This document shows positions 1,789-15,648 of a stretch of DNA of 39,993 bases, piece after piece. Under the pieces are notes generated by a model. The model was not told where the DNA came from and made no database searches. It saw only the letters and a program-made list of their open reading frames with translations. Origin of the DNA: a virus (taxonomy: Duplodnaviria; Heunggongvirae; Uroviricota; Caudoviricetes); IMG/VR virus record IMGVR_UViG_2623620506_000005, positions 1 to 39,993 of that record, one strand, 5' to 3'. Within the stretch, counting starts at the first letter, position 1. Each line of letters begins with the position of its first letter. The position numbers and the translations under genes are program-made.

Positions 1789-2427
1789 TTAAATATCTTG
1801 TTGAATTTTAAAGCATACTCCCAATATGCAAGATAGATCATCCAGCATAATTGAAGGGTAGCGAGGATTCGTGGGGACTAAAAGAATATCCGGCCCTTCT
1901 ATCTCCAGTTTGCGAATGACAGGCGTTGTGGTCCCTTTGGGTAAGGCAAGGACAATATTTCCTGGTTGTACGATTCGATCGGGATCAACAAAAACTGTTG
2001 AACCATTTGGGATGGAAACTCCACCACCAGATGTCGACATACTGTCACTCTCTAGAACAACAGCAAAGGTATTGGCCGGGATTTCTCCGACAAGCTGCAC
2101 ACAAGAGGTTATTGAGGAATTTTTCATATAATCACTCCAGCTTGCTGCCTGCTGAAGTGATAGTAGCGGAACCGTTTTTATCGGCGGTAAAGATAGATCA
2201 AGCGAATCACCTGTATTTAACTCTCCTCCATTAAGAAGCCAATTTTCGTTTACTTTCAATATCTTTGCCAGTGAACTTATGTAACGCGAGGACGGCGCTC
2301 CTCCACCGTTCATCCATTGACTTACGGAGCCTTTTGATGCGCCAGTGGCATTGACAAGGTCTTTGCCTTTCAAGTTTAGCGCATGCATACGTTGGGTTAT
2401 GCGTTCAGATATTGTTTGCTTGTTCAT
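1789..2427 (-). CDS. cI: CI-like phage repressor (N-terminal HTH, C-terminal S24 LexA-like peptidase domain)
   Basis: 212 aa. N-terminal HTH (LKGKDLVNATGASKGSVSQWMNG); C-terminal S24-type region with Ser in LESDSMSTSGG and Lys in VIRKLEIEG; divergent from a cro-like gene. Confidence 0.85.
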   Translation of the reverse strand: MNKQTISERITQRMHALNLKGKDLVNATGASKGSVSQWMNGGGAPSSRYISSLAKILKVNENWLLNGGELNTGDSLDLSLPPIKTVPLLSLQQAASWSDYMKNSSITSCVQLVGEIPANTFAVVLESDSMSTSGGGVSIPNGSTVFVDPDRIVQPGNIVLALPKGTTTPVIRKLEIEGPDILLVPTNPRYPSIMLDDLSCILGVCFKIQQDI

Positions 2428-2489
2428 GTTTTGATTTTAAAACACAGATGGTTTTGTTTCTTGACTTTCTTTGGTTTTGATTATTAAAC
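2428..2489. promoter_or_regulatory. tripartite operator/promoter region between repressor and cro-like gene (OR-like)
   Basis: GTTTTGATTTTAAAAC (2428-2443), GTTTTGTTTCTTGAC (2451-2465) and GTTTTGATTATTAAAC (2474-2489) recur at 23-bp spacing; TTGACT at 2461-2466 is a possible -35. Confidence 0.5.
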
Positions 2490-2518
2490 TTTTGGCGTTC
2501 AGTTTTATGGAGCGACTC

Positions 2519-2761
2519 ATGAAAAAATCAGAAGTATTAGGCTATTTTGGCGGAGTTGTTAAAACAGCCGCCGCTCTAGGAACGTCAAAAACCACAGTCA
2601 GCATGTGGGGGGAAGACGTTCCGTGGAAATGGGCGTTGCTAATTCAGGCAGTCACTGCCGGGGCGCTCAAATATGAGTTACACATACCGACGGTTGTCAT
2701 TCCCGATTCTGATCATAATCCGCCTTCTAACCAAGGGGGGATTCATGAAAATCAAGCATGA
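2519..2761 (+). CDS. Cro/YdaS-like DNA-binding protein
   Basis: ORF 2471-2761; ATG 2519 preferred (GGAG RBS). HTH-like segment VVKTAAALGTSKTTVSMWGEDVPWKW; divergent from the repressor. Start uncertain (2507 also possible). Confidence 0.6.
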   Translation: MKKSEVLGYFGGVVKTAAALGTSKTTVSMWGEDVPWKWALLIQAVTAGALKYELHIPTVVIPDSDHNPPSNQGGIHENQA

Positions 2762-3170
2762 ACACATCCGCATGGCGATGAATGCCTGGGCGCATCCGGA
2801 CGGCGAAAAAGTACCGACTGCGAAGATTACCAAAGCGTATTTCGAACTGGGTATGACGTTCCCGGAACTGTATGACGACAGCCATCCGGAAGCCCTGGCT
2901 CGCAATACCCAGAAAATTTTCCGCTGGATAGAGAAAGACACCCCTGATGCAGTTGAAAAAATTCAGGCGTTGTTACCAGCGATCGAAAAGGCAATGCCAC
3001 CTTTGCTGGTGGCCAGAATGCGCAGCCACAGTTCAACTTATTTTCGGGAGCTGGTGGAGACGCGGGAGCGACTGGTGAGAGACGCTGATGATTTTGTCGC
3101 AGTGGCAATCGCCGGTTTCAATCAGATGAACCGTGGTGGCCCGGCAGGAAATGCTGTGGCAGTGCATTGA
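2745..3170 (+). CDS. CII-like / YdaT-family early regulatory protein (tentative)
   Basis: ATG 2745 after a strong RBS (AAGGGGGG). Position after cro and N-terminus MKIKHEHI resemble YdaT-type proteins of Rac-like prophages, from memory only. Confidence 0.45.
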   Translation: MKIKHEHIRMAMNAWAHPDGEKVPTAKITKAYFELGMTFPELYDDSHPEALARNTQKIFRWIEKDTPDAVEKIQALLPAIEKAMPPLLVARMRSHSSTYFRELVETRERLVRDADDFVAVAIAGFNQMNRGGPAGNAVAVH

Positions 3171-5000: not shown

Positions 5001-7799
5001 ATGTGGGGAAGTGAAAACAAACAAAATCTGGACGTACTGGATCCTGTGCAGTTGGTGCGTATCGAAGCGGTACACCGGGGGTTCCTTTACCAGCATCTTT
5101 ACGCTGTAGGCTGCTTACTTTTGGCGCAGAGGGCTGCTATGGACTCAGTAACTGTCGAGCTTGATGAGGATATTGAGCTGAAATCCAAACAGGAACGTCT
5201 CTACATTCAGGTTAAAACCCGTTCAAAGCCTATTATGCCCAACGATGTGTCGGGGGCTCTGGAGCGATTTGTAAAGCTCAGAAATGAGCATACTTCGGCA
5301 AACCGCGAAGGGGTGGCTTCTTTTGTGATTATTGTAAACCAGGCGCCTGGACCGCTGCTTCAGAAGATGATTGACGATAAAAAGCTTCCTTCTGATGTTC
5401 TTATTGTCTGGCCCCGGTCGACAGCTGGACGTCACCCGGCACTTCCGCCCGCATGGAGTACTCTGGCTGATGCGGCCACATGGTGTATCGCAGAAGCAGA
5501 AAAGCTGAAATTTTCACTATTGTCCCCAGAATCCTTGATTTGGAAGTTAGCAGGGTTGGTTCAGCTTGCCGCCACCGGAGGCGATACCAATGGACAACAT
5601 ACGTTTTTCACGGAGGAACTTACTGAACTATTTGAACAGTTGATCGTTCAGCTACAGGACTTTCCTGCACCACCAGCACTGTACCGCCCACAAAACGAAG
5701 AACCTTCTCTCACATCTGGTGAGCGGATCCGTATCCTTTGTGGACTCTCAGGTGCAGGCAAGACAGCGTGGGCCGCACAGGCCGCATTACACTCCACTGC
5801 ACTTTGTGCTTATTACGACACCGGTGATCTTCCCGGTCCAGCTCTGGCCAGTACGCTGGTGCGGGAGATGGCTGCTAGATTTACAGCCCGTGACCAAGAC
5901 GGTTTGCGCAGGATTTTGCTCCCCGGAGCCAGTGGTTTTGAGGCTCTTAGGAGTTTTGATACCTACCTGAAAGAGCAGGGTACCACCTTGGTGCTGGTTC
6001 TGGATAACGCCCATCGTGTACCTGCGGAAAATCTACGGGATGTTCTGAATGCAACTACACATATTCGTTTTGTGCTGTTGTGCCAGCCTCACGAAAACGT
6101 TCGCGAACTGGAGGTCATGACGGGGCTACAGCGCGAGGGCCTGCAGGGATGGAATCTCGATACGGTAGCTGTCGTTGTAAACGATATCGGAGGATTTGCC
6201 ACCGCTATGGGATACGAGCAGCTACGGGCTTACACTGGTGGTCTTCCCCTGTATGTAGAGAGCGCCGCAAAAATCGCCGTTTCTGACTATGAGCGTAGTG
6301 TCGATGCTCTGTGTGCTGAACTCCAGCAACAAACCCATACTGCGGAAACCGCCCAAGAAATTATTCTGTCACGTGTATTTCAGGGATTTGAATCACTACT
6401 TCAGAGCGCGCTGGCATTGTTCAGTCTCTCTGACGTAGGGCTGAGTCGCGAAGAGATTTCTACGCTCCTAATCAATTCGCTGAACATTTCACCAAGCAGT
6501 GCGGCTTCTTTAATTAGGAAAATGCGCGCTACTGGCACTATTGAAATTTATGGAAACCAGACCCTGAAGGTACATGATGCTGTCAGGGGGCTAGGACTGC
6601 AACATCTGGAACTGATGGATCAGGGTATATCGAACAAAGCGCTACTAGCGCTGAAAGACCTTTTAGTTGAAAGTCTTCATAATACCCGCAATACAAAACG
6701 GTTATCGTTGTTGACTCAACTTTATATTAAGCTTAATGATGTCACGACGTTGATCGAACTCTCAGGCCAAGAAATGTTTTATGAGATGGGCGTGACGGTC
6801 GACATTCTTGCAAGCTTGGAGCGTGCTGCAACATCGGACTTATTGGGACCTGTTCATAAATTCTGGGCATTGGATGGCCTTGTTTTCGTTGAGCTTAAAG
6901 ACGGAATATCCGACCACATTGCTCAGAGGTTAAACATCATGGGAGCTTTACTTGCGGAGCACAAGTTCGGCTATCAAGAAGAGATGGCCTATGCAATGAA
7001 ACGAATGTTATTTTCGGCAGAAAGCAATGATGCACGAGAAGTTCAAAAGCTGGCACAGGAAGTCCGCCCCCAACTCCCAGATGAAGAACATAAACGCATC
7101 TTTGACTACAACCATGCCATTGCACTCTGGAGATTAAAAAAACTCAAGGATGCTGAAACATTAAGCTGTAATGTTATACAAGGGTACTATTCTTTATTTG
7201 GTATCACACCTGCTGATGTCATAGGAAAAAACGCCGACGCATTATGGAAAACTATTAATCATTCCGAAAATATGCAGGAACACTTTAAACATATGGCTGA
7301 TGCTCTGGAGTTGCTGGCCAGAATTCGTGATGCGCAGGGAAAACTGTCACCATTACTGCGTATTCATTCGATGAAGTTCTACAATCTGGCCATGGCCCCG
7401 GAATCCATGGTCAGGGTGGGCCAAGATCTGGCGGATGAGTTTGTTGCCATAAAGGATTACGACGGTGCCAAGGAAGTCATGGAGCAACATGTCCTGCCGG
7501 TTGTCAATGAGGCAGGTCTAGTACATCGACTGATTCAGGTTCGAAGCCAGTACGCAGTCATATTGGCACTATCGGGTCAGCATAAAGCAGCTGATGTCGA
7601 AATGCAGCGCCTTGCTCCCTATATCGAAGGCCTCACAGGTGTACAGCGTCAAGAAATCCAAAATCAATCAAATTACATCGTACAGCTTGCCCATAAAGCA
7701 GCAAAGACTAAATTAACTGAAGTTTTTGGTGCGGTCGGCCGGAATGAACAATGCCCCTGTGGCTCGGGAATAAAGTACAAAAAATGTCACGGTGCCTGA
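5001..7799 (+). CDS. large multidomain protein: N-terminal PD-(D/E)xK-like nuclease domain (Cap4/DUF4297-like), P-loop NTPase, helical repeat region, C-terminal SEC-C zinc motif; candidate anti-phage defence protein
   Basis: 932 aa, AAGGA RBS. Residues 53-72 VELDEDIEL...IQVK (acidic cluster plus QxK); Walker A GLSGAGKT (248-255); Walker B-like LVLVLDNAH (331-338); about 550 aa helical region; C-terminal CPCGSGIKYKKCH. Confidence 0.7.
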   Translation: MWGSENKQNLDVLDPVQLVRIEAVHRGFLYQHLYAVGCLLLAQRAAMDSVTVELDEDIELKSKQERLYIQVKTRSKPIMPNDVSGALERFVKLRNEHTSANREGVASFVIIVNQAPGPLLQKMIDDKKLPSDVLIVWPRSTAGRHPALPPAWSTLADAATWCIAEAEKLKFSLLSPESLIWKLAGLVQLAATGGDTNGQHTFFTEELTELFEQLIVQLQDFPAPPALYRPQNEEPSLTSGERIRILCGLSGAGKTAWAAQAALHSTALCAYYDTGDLPGPALASTLVREMAARFTARDQDGLRRILLPGASGFEALRSFDTYLKEQGTTLVLVLDNAHRVPAENLRDVLNATTHIRFVLLCQPHENVRELEVMTGLQREGLQGWNLDTVAVVVNDIGGFATAMGYEQLRAYTGGLPLYVESAAKIAVSDYERSVDALCAELQQQTHTAETAQEIILSRVFQGFESLLQSALALFSLSDVGLSREEISTLLINSLNISPSSAASLIRKMRATGTIEIYGNQTLKVHDAVRGLGLQHLELMDQGISNKALLALKDLLVESLHNTRNTKRLSLLTQLYIKLNDVTTLIELSGQEMFYEMGVTVDILASLERAATSDLLGPVHKFWALDGLVFVELKDGISDHIAQRLNIMGALLAEHKFGYQEEMAYAMKRMLFSAESNDAREVQKLAQEVRPQLPDEEHKRIFDYNHAIALWRLKKLKDAETLSCNVIQGYYSLFGITPADVIGKNADALWKTINHSENMQEHFKHMADALELLARIRDAQGKLSPLLRIHSMKFYNLAMAPESMVRVGQDLADEFVAIKDYDGAKEVMEQHVLPVVNEAGLVHRLIQVRSQYAVILALSGQHKAADVEMQRLAPYIEGLTGVQRQEIQNQSNYIVQLAHKAAKTKLTEVFGAVGRNEQCPCGSGIKYKKCHGA

Positions 7800-8075
7800 G
7801 TCTTTGTACGACCATGCGGGCCTTATTGTCTTGCTATTGCTCTTATGGTTCGCCTTTCTGATTGATTTCATATTGGCGAGGTGACGGGAGTTAAGTAGAA
7901 TTGCTGCGGGTGCTTGAGGCTATCTGCCTCAGGCATGAACACCAAAGGCAGATAGAGAAAAGCCCCAGTTAACATTACGCGTCCTGCAAGACGCTTAACA
8001 TTAATCTGAGGCCATATCTATGCGACACATAGAGATTAGCCTCTTACGGACCGAAAGGTCAAGGAGAAGCAGGCT

Positions 8076-8231
8076 ATGAAGCAGCAAAAGGCGATGTTAA
8101 TCGCCCTGATCGTCATCTGTTTAACCGTCATAGTGACGGCACTGGTAACGAGGAAAGACCTCTGCGAGGTACGAATCCGAACCGGCCAGACGGAGGTCGC
8201 TGTCTTCACAGCTTACGAACCTGAGGAGTAA
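8076..8231 (+). CDS. hok: Hok/Gef-family type I toxin (small membrane toxin)
   Basis: 51 aa, MKQQKAMLIALIVICLTVIVTALVTRKDLCEVRIRTGQTEVAVFTAYEPEE; near-identical in pattern to remembered Gef/HokC. Not in ORF track (<60 aa). Confidence 0.85.
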   Translation: MKQQKAMLIALIVICLTVIVTALVTRKDLCEVRIRTGQTEVAVFTAYEPEE

Positions 8232-10031: not shown

Positions 10032-10403
10032 ATGCGTATAGAGTTTGTTTTGCCTTACCCGCCGACGGTGAACACCTACTGGCGTCGTCGTGGCAGCACA
10101 TATTTTGTATCAAAAGCCGGTGAGCGTTATCGCCGTGATGTGGCGCTTATTGTTCGCCAGCAGCGGCTGAAATTAAACCTGTCCGGAAGGCTGGCGATAA
10201 AGATTATTGCAGAGCCACCGGATAAGCGCCGTCGTGACCTGGACAATATTCTGAAAGCACCACTGGATGCGCTGACGCATGTGGGACTGCTTATCGATGA
10301 CGAGCAGTTTGATGAAATCAATATAGTACGCGGTAAGCTCGTTCCTGGTGGTCGGCTGGGCGTGAAGATTTGCGAAATTAGAGGTGATAGTAATGGGGCG
10401 TGA
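10032..10403 (+). CDS. rusA: RusA-type Holliday junction resolvase
   Basis: 123 aa; RRRDLDNILKAPLDALT catalytic region and overall similarity to remembered E. coli RusA. Confidence 0.85.
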   Translation: MRIEFVLPYPPTVNTYWRRRGSTYFVSKAGERYRRDVALIVRQQRLKLNLSGRLAIKIIAEPPDKRRRDLDNILKAPLDALTHVGLLIDDEQFDEINIVRGKLVPGGRLGVKICEIRGDSNGA

Positions 10404-10764
10404 TATGTATGAGGTTTTAGACCGCTGGGGGGCATGGGCTGCAGCAGAAAATAGTGGTGTCGACTGGCAGTCGATAGCGGCAGGCTTCAAGGGGCTTCTA
10501 CCACACGGTAAAAAGTCACGCCTCCAGTGCGATGATGATGAAGGAATTATGATTGATGGATGTGTGGCCCGGTTGCGGAAATATAAGCCAAAAGAATATG
10601 AGCTGATAATTGCACACTTTGTCATCGGGATTTCGCTCCGTACAATTGCAAAGAAGCGGAAGTGTTCAGATGGTACAATACGAAAAGACATGCAAACAGC
10701 AATGGGGTTTATTGATGGCTGCTTGTCATTTTTCATTTACTACAATGACTTAAGTTCTATGTAA
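10393..10764 (+). CDS. Q: late-gene antiterminator Q (QuuD/phage-82 type)
   Basis: ATG 10393 (RBS GAGGTGA); VLDRWGAWAA...SIAAGFKGLL...CDDDEGIMIDGCVARL matches remembered QuuD-like antiterminators. Confidence 0.75.
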   Translation: MGRDMYEVLDRWGAWAAAENSGVDWQSIAAGFKGLLPHGKKSRLQCDDDEGIMIDGCVARLRKYKPKEYELIIAHFVIGISLRTIAKKRKCSDGTIRKDMQTAMGFIDGCLSFFIYYNDLSSM

Positions 10765-10769
10765 AATCG

Positions 10770-10805
10770 TTCTACTTTCCCAACTTTTATGTGTATATAA
10801 TACCA
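10770..10805 (+). promoter_or_regulatory. candidate late promoter (PR'-like) downstream of Q
   Basis: Perfect TATAAT at 10796-10801 in the 51-bp gap between Q and the next gene; weak -35. Confidence 0.3.
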
Positions 10806-10815
10806 GGATAAAGTA

Positions 10816-11868
10816 ATGGAGAATCTTGTGAACATTCAGGCAGTAGACATTTTTTGTGGTGCGGGGGGCTTAACTTTTGGGCTAAAAAAAGCCGGGATTG
10901 AGGTTTCTCATGGTATTGATATTGATGAATCCTGCCGTTTTGCTATTGAGAGCAATAATCCTTTAACGCAGTTCATTAATCAGTCAGTTACAGAACTGCA
11001 ATCCTGCGATGTGTCTGCTATGTTCAGGGAAGGAAATATTAGATTGCTTGCTGGATGTGCTCCTTGCCAACCGTTTTCCAAGTATCGTAATCCAAATAGC
11101 CGTAAAGACGATACAAAGTGGCGTTTGTTATATGAGTTTCAAAGGCTTGTAAGTGATGTCATGCCAGAGCTTGTGACGATGGAGAATGTTCCTCAACTTA
11201 GAAACCATAAGGTTTTTGAAGGGTTTGTTAGTGCATTAAAGACTCTTGGATATCATTTGTGGTACGACGTTGTAAGATGTTCTGAGTATGGCTTACCTCA
11301 AAATAGACGTAGATTAATTCTAATTGGTTCCCAATTGGGGCCGATCAGCCTTGATCAAAAAAAAGTTAGCCGTAAAGTTACTGTTAAGGATGCTATTGGT
11401 AGGTTGCCAAAAGTAGGGGCAGGTGAGAAGCTGGAAAGCGATCCCTTGCATCGTTCGCCTAAATTGATGGATATCAATCTTAAACGAATCATGCATTCTT
11501 TACCTGGTGGTACATGGGATGACTGGCCTGAAGAAATTAGAGCAGACTGTCATAAAAAGAATTCAGGTGCTACCTATAAAAGCGTTTATGGACGGATGGT
11601 TTGGGACGATACTAGCCCTACGATAACTACCCAGTGTTATGGATATGGAAATGGACGATTTGGCCATCCTGAGCAAAATCGCGCCATAACTTTGCGTGAA
11701 GCTGCGATTTTGCAATCCTTTCCAATGGATTATAAATTCCTTGACAAGGAGACGCCTTTTTCATTCCAAAAATTGGGGACAATGATTGGAAATGCTGTTC
11801 CCCCTATAATTGGTCAGATAATAGGGGAAACATTTATCAGACATGTTGAGGGGATAAATACCCGTTAG
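10816..11868 (+). CDS. DNA (cytosine-5)-methyltransferase
   Basis: Motif I FCGAGG, motif IV PCQPFS, ENV motif, C-terminal GNAVPP. Confidence 0.9.
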   Translation: MENLVNIQAVDIFCGAGGLTFGLKKAGIEVSHGIDIDESCRFAIESNNPLTQFINQSVTELQSCDVSAMFREGNIRLLAGCAPCQPFSKYRNPNSRKDDTKWRLLYEFQRLVSDVMPELVTMENVPQLRNHKVFEGFVSALKTLGYHLWYDVVRCSEYGLPQNRRRLILIGSQLGPISLDQKKVSRKVTVKDAIGRLPKVGAGEKLESDPLHRSPKLMDINLKRIMHSLPGGTWDDWPEEIRADCHKKNSGATYKSVYGRMVWDDTSPTITTQCYGYGNGRFGHPEQNRAITLREAAILQSFPMDYKFLDKETPFSFQKLGTMIGNAVPPIIGQIIGETFIRHVEGINTR

Positions 11869-12526
11869 AGGTAATATAATTTTCTGTTGAGTTGATTAAT
11901 AAACGCAAATATAGATCAATTCTTTCTGACCTCGATTTGACTTCTTCTAAAGGGTCTATTTGACCTTTTTTAGAAAAGCTGGTACTTCCATGTGCCAGCT
12001 CATTTCTGATATCTTTAAGTAAATCTAAGTCAACGCCATTTCTACACTCTGGTGAGTTTGCAACAGTTATTCCGTAAGCTTGTGTTATTTTGTGCAATAC
12101 AGACTTGCAAACATTACCATTGAATTCTTTACGTATGTTTAATGAGGCTGAAATGATCCTTTTAGATATATCGGAACCAATTTTTTGATAAAGAGATTTT
12201 CCCGATTCATTATCTGAAATGATACGGTGCAAGATATTTACTTGGAATTTCTCCCTGAGTGATGCGTAATTTACTTCATTATCTTGCAAATGGTCATAAA
12301 TTGACTCAATGCATCCTCTGGCAGTGTTTTCAACCTGATTGTACAGCATCATGTGCACGGATGATTTTAAAATGTTAACCCTAAGGGTATTAGATTCTAT
12401 TTCATCTTTATGCGTTTGCTGATCTAAATGCTGAGTCTGAGCCTCTAAAGATGACGCAAGAGAAAGCAATTCCATAATATCTCTTGCTCTTTCTTCGTAT
12501 TCATCTCTTAAATCAATCAAACTCAT
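11837..12526 (-). CDS. HEPN-domain protein (MAE_28990/MAE_18760-like), putative RNase partner of the DUF262 protein
   Basis: 229 aa; Rx4H motif RNELAH (R174..H179) near the C-terminus; start 2 nt downstream of the DUF262 stop. Confidence 0.6.
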   Translation of the reverse strand: MSLIDLRDEYEERARDIMELLSLASSLEAQTQHLDQQTHKDEIESNTLRVNILKSSVHMMLYNQVENTARGCIESIYDHLQDNEVNYASLREKFQVNILHRIISDNESGKSLYQKIGSDISKRIISASLNIRKEFNGNVCKSVLHKITQAYGITVANSPECRNGVDLDLLKDIRNELAHGSTSFSKKGQIDPLEEVKSRSERIDLYLRLLINSTENYITSNGYLSPQHV

Positions 12527-12528
12527 AG

Positions 12529-13686
12529 TTACATTCCTAATAATTTATCTTTGACATAAAATATTCTGTTTTTGAGTTGGCTGGTGTTGTTGGCACTATC
12601 AGCAGTAACTATGGTTTCAAATTCCTCCCCAAACAGCCAGTCTCCTACAGGAATAACCGGAGCCTGTAGATGTGGATTGGCTTTTAAGGCAAGAGCAGTT
12701 CCCACTGCTATGGCTTCGTATCTTGCACGGGGGGTGGTTTTACTTGTTGCTGTCTTTTTAAACCCCATAGGAAAATGAGCATCTACAAAAGCAAGCATGC
12801 TCTCAAAATCATGTTTAAAATTGTCAACATCTTGTTGTGTAACCCTTTCGGCTTGAACATTAAGATAATTGTCAATAAAAGGAGCGACATAACCCTTATA
12901 ATTTTCTAAATCATTTAAGTATGCAAAAAATCTCAAAACTAACTCACGATGATCGCCATTCGAACGCTTCCTGTCTGATAATGGAGCTAGGCTAGCGAAA
13001 AGTGGATTTGTTGAGCAAGGGGTCACAACGTCTCTATAGAAAATTGAAGTAGCCGCATCTGAACCATGTCTAACCTCCATAGCTTCCAATCTCTTAACAC
13101 CTGAGTTTATCCTTTCGAATAAATCTCTCCTATGTTGCTCCTCAACATCACCTTTCAATTCAATAAATCTTAGTGATGCCCTTAAAAATCGTCTTTGGCG
13201 ACTAGCCAAAAGATCTGAAAATTTGAAACCCTCTAAACTTTTGAGTTCTTTTAAATCTTTTAATTCAAACTGATTGTTCCAAAAGTAATAAATTGAGCGA
13301 ATCCTTTGTGAGCCGTCAATGATTTCTACCCGACCATCCAATTCTGGATCTTCATTAAATACGTCTGCAATGTAAAGATACGGTATTGGAAAATCTAATA
13401 ATATGCTTTCGATAAATCGAGAGGCTGTTTTGATATCCCATTTGTAGTCGCGTTGATAATCAGGAATAAAAAGTTCGTTTTTGTCAGTTTCAAGATTATC
13501 GCCATACTTTTGTACAATTACTTCAACGGTCCATTCACGTACGTTGTATCCAATGCTTCTCTGTGCGAGCCTAATCTCGTTGTCGGCAGAGGTGACCAAG
13601 GCTGCGATTTCAGCCTTTTTTCTGTTTTTCGCGTTTTCATCTTGAATCTGATCAAGCTCTTCTTTAAGTTCTTTGAGTGTAGTCAT
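12529..13686 (-). CDS. DUF262 (ParB/Srx-like NTPase-nuclease) domain protein
   Basis: 385 aa; DUF262 hallmarks IPDYQRDYKW (76-83) and IIDGSQR (122-128). Confidence 0.8.
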   Translation of the reverse strand: MTTLKELKEELDQIQDENAKNRKKAEIAALVTSADNEIRLAQRSIGYNVREWTVEVIVQKYGDNLETDKNELFIPDYQRDYKWDIKTASRFIESILLDFPIPYLYIADVFNEDPELDGRVEIIDGSQRIRSIYYFWNNQFELKDLKELKSLEGFKFSDLLASRQRRFLRASLRFIELKGDVEEQHRRDLFERINSGVKRLEAMEVRHGSDAATSIFYRDVVTPCSTNPLFASLAPLSDRKRSNGDHRELVLRFFAYLNDLENYKGYVAPFIDNYLNVQAERVTQQDVDNFKHDFESMLAFVDAHFPMGFKKTATSKTTPRARYEAIAVGTALALKANPHLQAPVIPVGDWLFGEEFETIVTADSANNTSQLKNRIFYVKDKLLGM

Positions 13687-13712
13687 ATAACAGTTCCTTT
13701 AATTGAATATGG

Positions 13713-13741
13713 ATTGTAAGAAAACTATAACGCGTACGCAA
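13713..13741 (-). promoter_or_regulatory. candidate sigma70 promoter for the DUF262-HEPN operon
   Basis: Minus strand: TTGCGT (-35) - 17 bp - TACAAT (-10), about 25 bp upstream of the DUF262 ATG and its AAAGGA RBS. Confidence 0.4.
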
Positions 13742-13934
13742 AAAATATTGTATCGTGTTAAGAGTGGTTGCTTCGCCACGCAGCTTAAAACCGCCGCAGA
13801 GCGGGTTTTTTTATGCCTGAAAATTGCTGCAGTACGTTAAACGCGCTGGTGGTTGCGAATACTGATCTTTCAGCTTGCTGGCTTTTTGGACAAGAGTTAT
13901 TGGTATGTCACGTTAACCAGAAAAGGGAAAAGAC

Positions 13935-14132
13935 ATGCTAAAACAGCAGGATATGACTGAAACCGCCAGAGTGGTATTTAATGAATTAAGCGTCACCGAA
14001 CCGGCGACCGTCGGGGAAATTGCGCAGAATACTTACCTTTCACGCGAACGCTGTCAGTTAATACTGACCCAGCTTGTTATGGCGGGTCTGGCAGATTATC
14101 AGTTCGGTTGTTACAGACGCCTTCCTCAGTGA
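13935..14132 (+). CDS. small winged-helix-like DNA-binding protein (possible regulator)
   Basis: 65 aa, RBS AAAAGGGAAAAG; HTH-like PATVGEIAQNTYLSRERCQLILTQLV. Confidence 0.4.
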   Translation: MLKQQDMTETARVVFNELSVTEPATVGEIAQNTYLSRERCQLILTQLVMAGLADYQFGCYRRLPQ

Positions 14133-14282
14133 AGGCTTTTTTATTTGTGGTAATGGGCGGCTGGTGGGTGTTAGCGGCACCTGCCAGCCATCTGCTCATG
14201 CGTTGGGGTCACAAGCAAACCTCAGGCCCATCTGCTTTGCGCAAAAGCGGTATGAGCCTATCAGAGAAGTGCTTATTGATCT

Positions 14283-15329
14283 ATGGCTAATACTGTAAAA
14301 ATATCCAGTTGTGAGTTAATCAACGCTGATTGCCTGGAATTTATCCAGACCTTACCGGAAAACTCTGTCGATCTTATAGTCACAGACCCGCCATACTTTA
14401 AAGTGAAACCCGAGGGCTGGGATAACCAGTGGAAGGGCGACGATGATTATCTGAAATGGCTGGACCGATGTCTGGCGCAGTTCTGGCGGGTACTGAAGCC
14501 TGCCGGAAGTCTCTACCTGTTCTGTGGTCATCGCCTGGCATCTGATATCGAAATCATGATGCGTCAGCGCTTTAATGTACTGAACCACATTATCTGGGCG
14601 AAGCCGTCCGGACGCTGGAACGGATGCAACAAGGAAAGCCTGCGGGCGTATTTCCCGGCAACAGAACGCATTCTGTTTGCAGAACATTATCAGGGGCCAT
14701 ACCAGCCCAAAAATGACGGCTATGCGGCAAAGGGGCGCGAGCTAAAACAGCACGTCATGGCCCCGCTGATTTCTTACTTTCGTGATGCGCGTGAATCACT
14801 GGGAATAACGTCAAAACAGATAGCGGAAGCCACCGGAAAGAAAAACATGGCTTCGCACTGGTTTGGTACCAGTCAGTGGCAGTTACCGAACGAGGGTGAT
14901 TACAACAAATTGCAGGAGTTGTTTGCGCGTGTTGCGGCAGAAAAACATCAGCGCGGGGAACTGGAAAAGCCACACCACCAGCTGGTCAGCGCATACAGTG
15001 AACTGAACCGGCAATATGCCAGCCTGCTGGCAGAGTACAAATCTTTACGGCGTTATTTTTCCGTATCGGCTGCTGTTCCTTATACGGATGTCTGGACGTA
15101 CAAGCCAGTGCAGTATTATCCGGGCAAACATCCCTGTGAAAAACCAGCGGATATGTTACGTCAGATAATTACCGCCAGCAGTCGTCCGGGAGACTTGGTT
15201 GTCGACTTTTTTATGGGGTCAGGCTCCACAATTAAAGCCGCAATGACGCTGGGGCGTCGGGCAATTGGTGTGGAACTGGAAAAAGAGAGATTTAATCAAA
15301 CTGTAACTGTAATAGAAAATAATCTTTAA
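14283..15329 (+). CDS. DNA N6-adenine/N4-cytosine methyltransferase (beta-class, DPPY)
   Basis: 348 aa; DPPY at 35-38; C-terminal AdoMet motif VVDFFMGSGST. Confidence 0.85.
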   Translation: MANTVKISSCELINADCLEFIQTLPENSVDLIVTDPPYFKVKPEGWDNQWKGDDDYLKWLDRCLAQFWRVLKPAGSLYLFCGHRLASDIEIMMRQRFNVLNHIIWAKPSGRWNGCNKESLRAYFPATERILFAEHYQGPYQPKNDGYAAKGRELKQHVMAPLISYFRDARESLGITSKQIAEATGKKNMASHWFGTSQWQLPNEGDYNKLQELFARVAAEKHQRGELEKPHHQLVSAYSELNRQYASLLAEYKSLRRYFSVSAAVPYTDVWTYKPVQYYPGKHPCEKPADMLRQIITASSRPGDLVVDFFMGSGSTIKAAMTLGRRAIGVELEKERFNQTVTVIENNL

Positions 15330-15494
15330 ACACGCTTTCTATTATTTATTAATTATTGAAACAATAAAAACATATGAGTATATTTACAAATATTGACATT
15401 GATTTTTATTGAAAAAATATCTTATCTCGTTAATATTCTCACCCGGTTCCGAGGGGGTATTGCTGGGGCATTTTATTTTTCTTGAGGAACCATT

Positions 15495-15570
<76 letters not shown>

Positions 15571-15573
15571 TAT

Positions 15574-15648
<75 letters not shown>

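Follow-up and report, generated by a model that had tools for sequence, protein, structure and literature searches.

We analyzed a stretch of 39,993 nucleotides (nt) of DNA (IMG/VR record IMGVR_UViG_2623620506_000005, hereafter the window), which is an Escherichia coli lambdoid prophage, and we find that it carries a locus of three adjoining genes encoding a DUF262/GmrSD_N protein (A), a MAE_28990-type HEPN protein (B) and a C5 DNA cytosine methyltransferase. It is very probable that this locus is a defence system with a DUF262 sensor and a HEPN RNase effector, and likely that the methylase is a functional part of the system in the lineage of the window. The fuller proposal, that A, B and the methylase make up a mobile three-gene anti-phage cassette with a three-part mechanism, stands in our judgment an even chance of being right. 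Its most specific element, that the modification state written by the cassette methylase is what is sensed, is put forward only tentatively.

The A and B genes form a compact pair on the minus strand. Gene A (12529–13686, from the list of open reading frames (ORFs)) encodes 385 amino acids (aa) and gene B (11837–12526) encodes 229 aa. As the first-pass annotation of this DNA had described, the two ORFs are separated by 2 nt, such that the TAA stop codon of A is followed by ‘ct’ and the ATG of B. The pair runs opposite to all flanking phage genes, and an AGGA Shine-Dalgarno sequence lies upstream of both starts. The three motifs on which that annotation relied are all present in the translations: DYQRDYKW (residues 76–83 of A, nt 13438–13461); IIDGSQR (residues 122–128 of A), which contains the DGQQR-type nucleotide-hydrolysis motif DGSQR (residues 124–128, codons at 13303–13317, minus strand); and RNELAH, the HEPN catalytic motif of B (R174 to H179, codons read directly from the sequence at 11990–12007, minus strand). 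The methylase gene (10816–11868, plus strand, 350 aa) is convergent with B, and the ORF coordinates of the two genes overlap at their 3′ ends by 32 nt (11837–11868).

Assignment of A to DUF262, proposed from the motifs, is borne out by a match to the Pfam family GmrSD_N (PF03235) at 1.8e-25 and 90.6 bits, well over the curated cut-off of 33.2. The best match among PADLOC models is to NsnA (1.1e-45, 154.6 bits, residues 23–313), and the PD-T4-2_A model (PDLC04027) scores below it (7.8e-27, 92.3 bits). The QR, DGSQR and FxxxN motifs are invariant in the alignment of A (Q78-R79, D124 G125 S126 Q127 R128 and F190...N194). The protein comprises a ParB-fold DUF262 NTPase domain and a helical C-terminal domain, predicted to be NsnA/DndB-like and to bind DNA, so that A would act as a DNA sensor or switch. 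No close relative of A was found by sequence search of solved structures (best E value 1e-3), and in a structural comparison BrxU was the sole long match. DUF262 is the sensor and NTPase module of GmrSD, BrxU and SspE, and this kinship, like the BrxU match, favors the main alternative to our proposal, a type IV-like system in which DUF262 senses hypermodified phage DNA (for example, hydroxymethylcytosine (hmC) or glucosyl-hmC of the T-even phages) and turns on the HEPN RNase, the methylase being independent cargo used, for example, in anti-restriction.

The HEPN assignment of B is equally well founded, with a match to HEPN_MAE_28990 (PF18737) across the full length of the protein (1.3e-15, 58.7 bits, cut-off 26.8) and a second Pfam match to HEPN_RiboL-PSP (8e-8). 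Alignments show that the RNxLAHG motif is invariant and that both R174 and H179 are kept over 122 distant relatives; we therefore agree with the first-pass annotation that B, which has an intact Rx4H motif, is likely the effector, and on this sequence evidence B is a catalytically intact HEPN protein and likely an RNase. Sequence search of solved structures found no close relative of B. Nor did B match the PADLOC model PD-T4-2_B (PDLC04028) at E ≤1, a model that is matched by only two of the 122 distant B relatives, at E values of about 3e-3. We also noted a hairpin with a 9-bp stem and a T-rich tail inside B (11977–12000, plus strand), over the ELAHGSTS codons of the HEPN motif and 110 nt beyond the methylase stop codon; it could serve to end the transcript of the convergent methylase gene, or its position could be coincidental.

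In place of the DUF1524 nuclease that usually accompanies DUF262, the first-pass annotation saw the HEPN protein, and indeed no DUF1524/HNH His-Me nuclease was found in A, B or their neighbors by Pfam and PADLOC profile searches. What that annotation missed is the convergent methylase. This protein matches Pfam DNA_methylase (PF00145, 1.8e-53), the NCBIfam dcm superfamily (6e-35) and PADLOC MTase_II (5e-87), and the catalytic motifs FCGAGG, PCQ, ENV, QNRRR and GNAVP are all visible in its translation. Unlike a type II restriction-modification system, the cassette has no DNA endonuclease domain recognizable by profile search; the sole predicted nuclease is the HEPN RNase.

To evaluate the association among the three genes, we counted linkage in three sets: 74 loci from reference genomes, 5,426 complete E. 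coli genomes and 29 loci from viral contigs. The association between A and B is close to absolute. Of 63 reference loci that could be assessed, 62 have a HEPN gene after A on the same strand, and the pairwise identities of the two proteins are correlated (rho 0.85). The methylase (scored in the reference genomes as a C5 methylase within 6 kb of A-B) adjoins the pair in 28 of the 62 reference loci, convergent in 23, co-directional upstream in three and co-directional downstream in two. The distance between the methylase and HEPN genes at the 23 convergent loci, expressed as overlap, ranges from −282 to +65 nt, but is between −11 and +41 nt in 21 of them, with 4 nt the commonest value. The 28 loci span Gammaproteobacteria, Desulfobacterium, Lentisphaerae, Planctomycetota, Actinomyces, Flavobacterium and marine cyanobacteria. 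In E. coli, 107 of the 5,426 genomes carry the pair and the same 107 carry the methylase, adjacent in every one, as two allelic variants (73 and 34 genomes), and all three genes are present in 29 of 29 viral-contig loci. Compared with the common allele in E. coli, the methylase of the window shows 99.8% identity and the A-B pair only 96.8%, which suggests faster evolution of A-B or recombination within the cassette.

The methylase has also been kept when its position or its identity has changed. It is an orthologous partner, still 48–66% identical where A is 37–44% and B 21–30% identical; in five reference loci it has shifted to a co-directional position, and in three a different C5 methylase (27–30% identity) stands in place of the usual one. 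Retention of a methylase through rearrangement and non-orthologous replacement, and across many phyla and mobile elements, points to functional coupling rather than hitch-hiking, and the unit of the cassette is thus probably three genes. These observations bear directly on the type IV-like alternative, which treats the methylase as a passenger. Against that view stands the linkage in 107 of 107 E. coli genomes and 29 of 29 viral contigs, together with retention in many phyla, in four kinds of mobile element and through rearrangement and non-orthologous replacement, a pattern that is hard to square with hitch-hiking; moreover, a sensor of modified cytosine placed beside its own cytosine methylase would risk self-activation. 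It can nevertheless draw on the fact that two-gene forms with no nearby methylase are common, and on the PD-T4-2 system, which is built on the same two domains, came from selection on T4 and is functional from a methylase-free clone. On balance we consider the type IV-like alternative unlikely.

The first-pass annotation knew of no experimental characterization of a DUF262–HEPN pairing, a statement that is now outdated. PD-T4-2, from E. coli strain ECOR65, is an anti-T4 system of two genes listed as ‘DUF262, HEPN’ (Vassallo et al. 2022). By HHpred its first protein is DUF262 and its second a RiboL-PSP/MAE_28990 HEPN; deletion in the native strain restored T4 plaquing, and a two-gene clone was protective in K-12 (Vassallo et al. 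2022). Our comparison with PD-T4-2 (RCO39066.1, QOYX01000002:338334-339873) was made through the PADLOC profiles alone. Like the A-B pair, PD-T4-2 is a two-gene operon on an E. coli accessory element, in which a DUF262 protein with no DUF1524 is followed by a small HEPN protein. The two differ in that PD-T4-2B is ∼165 aa and B is 229 aa with no match to the PD-T4-2_B model, in that A prefers the NsnA model over PD-T4-2_A, and in that the window cassette includes a conserved C5 methylase while the PD-T4-2 clone consists of two genes only. We also considered whether the copies on phage P24B2 and plasmid pVE155 are true PD-T4-2 loci, and rejected this, as both belong with the window cassette to one clade of NsnA-like DUF262 plus MAE_28990 HEPN; their DUF262 proteins likewise score higher on NsnA than on PD-T4-2_A, and their HEPN proteins have no PD-T4-2_B match.

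Exactly the triad of the window was tabulated in silico as an operon of MAE_28990 HEPN, ParB nuclease and DNA methylase (Anantharaman et al. 2013). All three components are found here, namely a MAE_28990 HEPN with Rx4-6H, a ParB-superfamily partner and a linked DNA methylase; the earlier entry is a single table row with no experiments, mechanism, gene order, mobility or prophage location. The same components, a ParB-like domain, a HEPN-like domain and a methyltransferase, recur in PD-lambda-5, a prophage-borne ParB/HEPN fusion plus methyltransferase described by its authors as a compact ‘RM+Abi’, that is, restriction-modification plus abortive infection (Vassallo et al. 2022). There, ParB and HEPN are fused and are of the ParBc and DUF4145 families, whereas here they are separate genes of the DUF262 and MAE_28990 families, and neither A nor B matched the PADLOC PD-Lambda-5 models. 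In the literature that we searched, MAE_28990 was named only in the 2013 paper, and no report combined DUF262, HEPN and a cytosine methyltransferase; DARNA/PD-T7-3, HEC-05/06/08, WonAB, GrwAB, the Dnd and BREX surveys and the GmrSD cluster survey proved to be unrelated leads. The locus is thus a relative of a kind catalogued in 2013, with PD-T4-2 as a validated two-gene analogue.

Two further groups of systems share the architecture of A. In Menshen (NsnABC), NsnA has the ParB-DUF262 plus ParBDB-type architecture also seen in A, and is a proposed DNA sensor feeding an RNase effector. The window lacks the NsnB ABC ATPase (DUF3696) and the NsnC inPIN effector, the partner of A being a stand-alone HEPN protein, and the cassette is therefore not Menshen. 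GmrSD, BrxU and SspE share with A the DUF262 NTPase with a DGQQR-type motif, together with the QR and FxxxN motifs, but use a His-Me (DUF1524/HNH) nuclease that is absent here, the effector in the window being a separate predicted RNase. SspE offers a precedent for reading self, in that its DUF262 domain reads the modification of self DNA and licenses the effector by NTP hydrolysis, although the modification in SspABCD-SspE is phosphorothioate and here it is 5-methylcytosine (m5C). Thus, with respect to whether the pair corresponds to an already named system, PD-T4-2 shares its architecture, but by profile the cassette is not PD-T4-2, and with NsnB and NsnC absent it is not Menshen. With NsnA as the best match of A and no PD-T4-2_B match for B, the PADLOC 2.0.0 profiles would not call the cassette; both proteins are already named by the NCBI annotation pipeline.

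We propose the following mechanism. The C5 methylase would mark a specific sequence on host and prophage DNA. A would survey DNA as an NTP-driven switch, using its ParB-fold DUF262 NTPase and its helical NsnA/DndB-like DNA-binding domain, and upon meeting DNA in the wrong modification state would activate its translationally coupled partner B. The trigger would most likely be incoming DNA that lacks the m5C mark of the cassette. B would then cleave cellular RNA, phage RNA or both, such that translation stops and the infection aborts. The first-pass annotation had suggested an abortive-infection or type IV restriction-like system with an RNA-targeting effector; the defence or abortive role and the likely RNA-targeting effector are supported, but the conserved C5 methylase partner shifts the likely logic from type IV-like toward restriction-modification-like with an RNase effector. 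Cast in those terms, the cassette could be a form of restriction-modification in which an RNase takes the place of the restriction arm, with the DUF262 NTPase reading the m5C mark or its absence and releasing HEPN, a formulation that we regard as possible but somewhat doubtful.

Several observations weigh against this proposal. A-B occurs with no C5 methylase within 6 kb in 34 of the 62 reference loci. These are mostly in Nostocales-type cyanobacteria, where the pair lies among housekeeping genes with no alternative methylases as neighbors. The copy on the IncFIA plasmid pVE155 also lacks the methylase. In the P2-like phage P24B2, a single frameshift near residue 231 (at about 2361–2365 of L112) splits the methylase gene (L112, ∼2021–3050, minus strand); the sequence may be in error here, or the phage may be a natural methylase-null variant in which A and B are intact. 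From the methylase-less loci and the two-gene PD-T4-2 it follows that not every system of this kind needs a methylase in cis, and the case for unmethylated DNA as the trigger is weaker for it. RNA cleavage, toxicity and phage protection by the A-B family are themselves predictions from sequence, and the phenotype of PD-T4-2 is not simply transferable because B has no PD-T4-2_B match. Finally, the candidate sigma-70 promoter of A-B (TTGCGT-17-TACAAT, 13713–13741, minus strand) is weak, with 8 of 12 consensus positions overall and 3 of 6 in the −35 element, below the scan threshold, and expression of A-B in the lysogen, which the first-pass annotation read from the orientation, is putative.

We also examined the region upstream of A in the methylase-less loci of cyanobacteria. 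In 11 of these (L024, L026, L027, L030, L035, L042, L043, L051, L058, L068 and L070), A is immediately preceded, on its own strand, by an ORF of ∼870–976 aa. The example that we scanned (L027) is aconitase B, and if the other upstream ORFs are also aconitase B, the two-gene cyanobacterial form is syntenic and probably vertically inherited.

The promoter of A-B was found where the first-pass annotation had placed it, and its −35 region is conserved, but besides falling under the scan threshold it is not part of any enrichment of such sites, as the region contains 7 promoter-like sites compared to 10.8±3.7 in shuffled sequence. Its best support comes from a 16-nt block, TTTTGCGTACGCGTTA (13728–13743, minus strand), which spans the −35 element and does not vary among five prophage copies, although the identity of their coding sequences is 71–97%. 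The block contains the palindromes GCGTACGC and ACGCGT and, judging from its sequence, may be an operator or a methylation-sensitive site; it could make expression sensitive to methylation or to A itself. The GCGTACGC/ACGCGT palindrome is absent from distant loci, and we rejected the idea that it serves universally as a site for the methylase or as an operator. Two Moorena loci (L014 and L020) have the palindrome GCATATGC twice, 15 nt apart and 44–61 nt upstream of A, and L019 has it once, which hints at lineage-specific operator sites.

In another alternative, A would chiefly be a DndB-like regulator of the modification gene, with HEPN serving an unrelated housekeeping or regulatory role on RNA. 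The A promoter overlaps a perfectly conserved palindrome block, and the Moorena loci have their own repeated palindrome ahead of A; both suggest operator sites and are consistent with this idea, as is the control of DNA modification operons by ParB proteins of the DndB family. The linkage of A to B is near-absolute even where there is no methylase, and none of the 122 distant relatives departs from the HEPN catalytic residues, both of which argue the other way, and a regulatory role for A is in any case compatible with a sensor role. We consider a chiefly regulatory A to be very improbable.

The mobility of the cassette is evident from its genomic settings. The backbone of the prophage in the window is 97.9% identical to prophages of Shiga toxin-producing E. 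coli (STEC) strains. Its genes run from hok/sok through DUF968 and RusA to Q; then comes the cassette, followed by a small winged-helix gene, an N6 methylase gene, two tRNA genes, TerB, holins and an endolysin. Antiterminator Q is at 10384–10764 (plus strand; PF06530 at 5e-46). The GC content of the cassette is 34–41%, compared to 50–57% for its flanks. The second E. coli variant resides in a different prophage, at dusA, and likewise lies between Q and the holin gene. The segment from 10398 to 13809, which includes the 3′ part of Q, the methylase, B, A and a hairpin, is shared with that prophage as one contiguous, 87%-identical block, and in 24 of the 29 viral contigs a Q homologue directly adjoins the methylase. 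Altogether the triad is found in four kinds of mobile element: the Q-lysis slot of lambdoid prophages, a P2-like phage, Tn7-like cargo and an integrase island. In Pseudoalteromonas (the Tn7-like cargo) and in Vibrio owensii (the integrase island), the DUF262 and HEPN genes are again followed by a convergent C5 methylase gene, the 3′ end of which overlaps the HEPN gene. In the P2-like phage, P24B2 (Peduovirus), the triad lies next to replication gene A, a region that is a recognized defence hotspot. About 2% of complete E. coli genomes, including ST131 strains, carry the cassette.

The slot between Q and the winged-helix gene (∼10765–13750) is filled differently in related prophages. Phage phiP27 has a GIY-YIG nuclease there (L080, 2239–3468), and the near-identical backbone of STEC308 has ORF6N and OB-fold genes in the same Q-lysis slot (L082, 3911–5466); the occurrence of unrelated cargo in the same slot identifies it as a variable cargo hotspot. 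At the right edge of the cassette is an element of ∼60 nt (13751–13811), composed of GTTAAGAGTGG..., a GC hairpin and a T-run. Its A-run, GC hairpin and T-run (13787–13813) are terminator-like in both directions, and the hairpin structure is kept, with differing stem sequences, in five copies. This edge element is common to phiP27, and in STEC308 it occurs twice, once after each cargo gene (L082, 4538–4597 and from 5485).

The finding of other defence-type cargo in the slots that the cassette occupies argues against the third alternative, in which the locus acts as an addiction or toxin-antitoxin-like module. In that case a HEPN toxin would be curbed by DUF262, by methylation or by both, post-segregational killing would stabilize the cassette and its element, and defence would be at most a side effect. 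Unlike in HEPN-MNT toxin-antitoxin pairs, no minimal nucleotidyltransferase (MNT) antitoxin gene adjoins B, the partner of which is DUF262. A is also no small labile antitoxin, being a 385-aa enzyme with invariant NTPase motifs; the closest validated system provides phage defence in its native strain; and the chromosomal two-gene copies in cyanobacteria are stable among housekeeping genes. An addiction module is thus improbable, and both this and the regulatory alternative are less likely than the type IV-like one.

The orientation of A-B raises the question of whether late transcription of the prophage traverses the pair in antisense. A promoter scan revealed no convincing late promoter pR′ in the window; the candidates, a promoter-like site inside Q with 10 of 12 consensus positions (10619–10646) and a perfect TATAAT with no −35 element just before the methylase, were both unconvincing. 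STEC308 carries another allele of Q and shows, immediately downstream of that gene and ahead of the slot, a clear promoter-terminator pair. This pair is not transferable to the window, but it makes antisense late transcription across A-B plausible, and a Q-dependent late transcript may by analogy run antisense through the pair. No Rfam match was found in or near the cassette.

Other features of the prophage lie outside the cassette. An ORF of 932 aa (5001–7799, plus strand) has a Cap4-like nuclease N-terminus (5.7e-6; PADLOC LmuA 5.7e-7), an AAA_22 P-loop and a C-terminal SEC-C motif, and from these matches may be a second defence gene, in the early region of the prophage. Just downstream of it, a sok antitoxin RNA (Rfam RF01794, 106 bits; 7908–8078, plus strand) marks a hok/sok module, and hokD is annotated at the equivalent position in STEC308. 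On the other side of the cassette, the region from 13935 to 15648 (the winged-helix gene, N6 adenine methylase and tRNAs) is 93% shared with the Stx2e phage phiP27, in which this block precedes stx2e. Where phiP27 has stx2e, the window carries no toxin genes but tRNA-Thr/Gly and a TerB-like gene.

Because the PADLOC 2.0.0 profiles do not call it, the cassette is probably missed in current censuses of defence systems. A link from methylation to an abortive RNase was first predicted in 2013, and PD-lambda-5 gave a hint of it, but such a link is not known to have been dissected. If our proposal is correct, the cassette would be a compact and tractable E. coli case in which self-recognition by DNA methylation is wired to an RNA-targeting abortive effector, and epigenetic discrimination of self from non-self on DNA would be coupled to the cleavage of RNA, not to cleavage of the invading DNA. 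The cassette could also help to explain how DUF262 sensors signal to effectors that are encoded in trans, as in PD-T4-2, Menshen and Dazbog.

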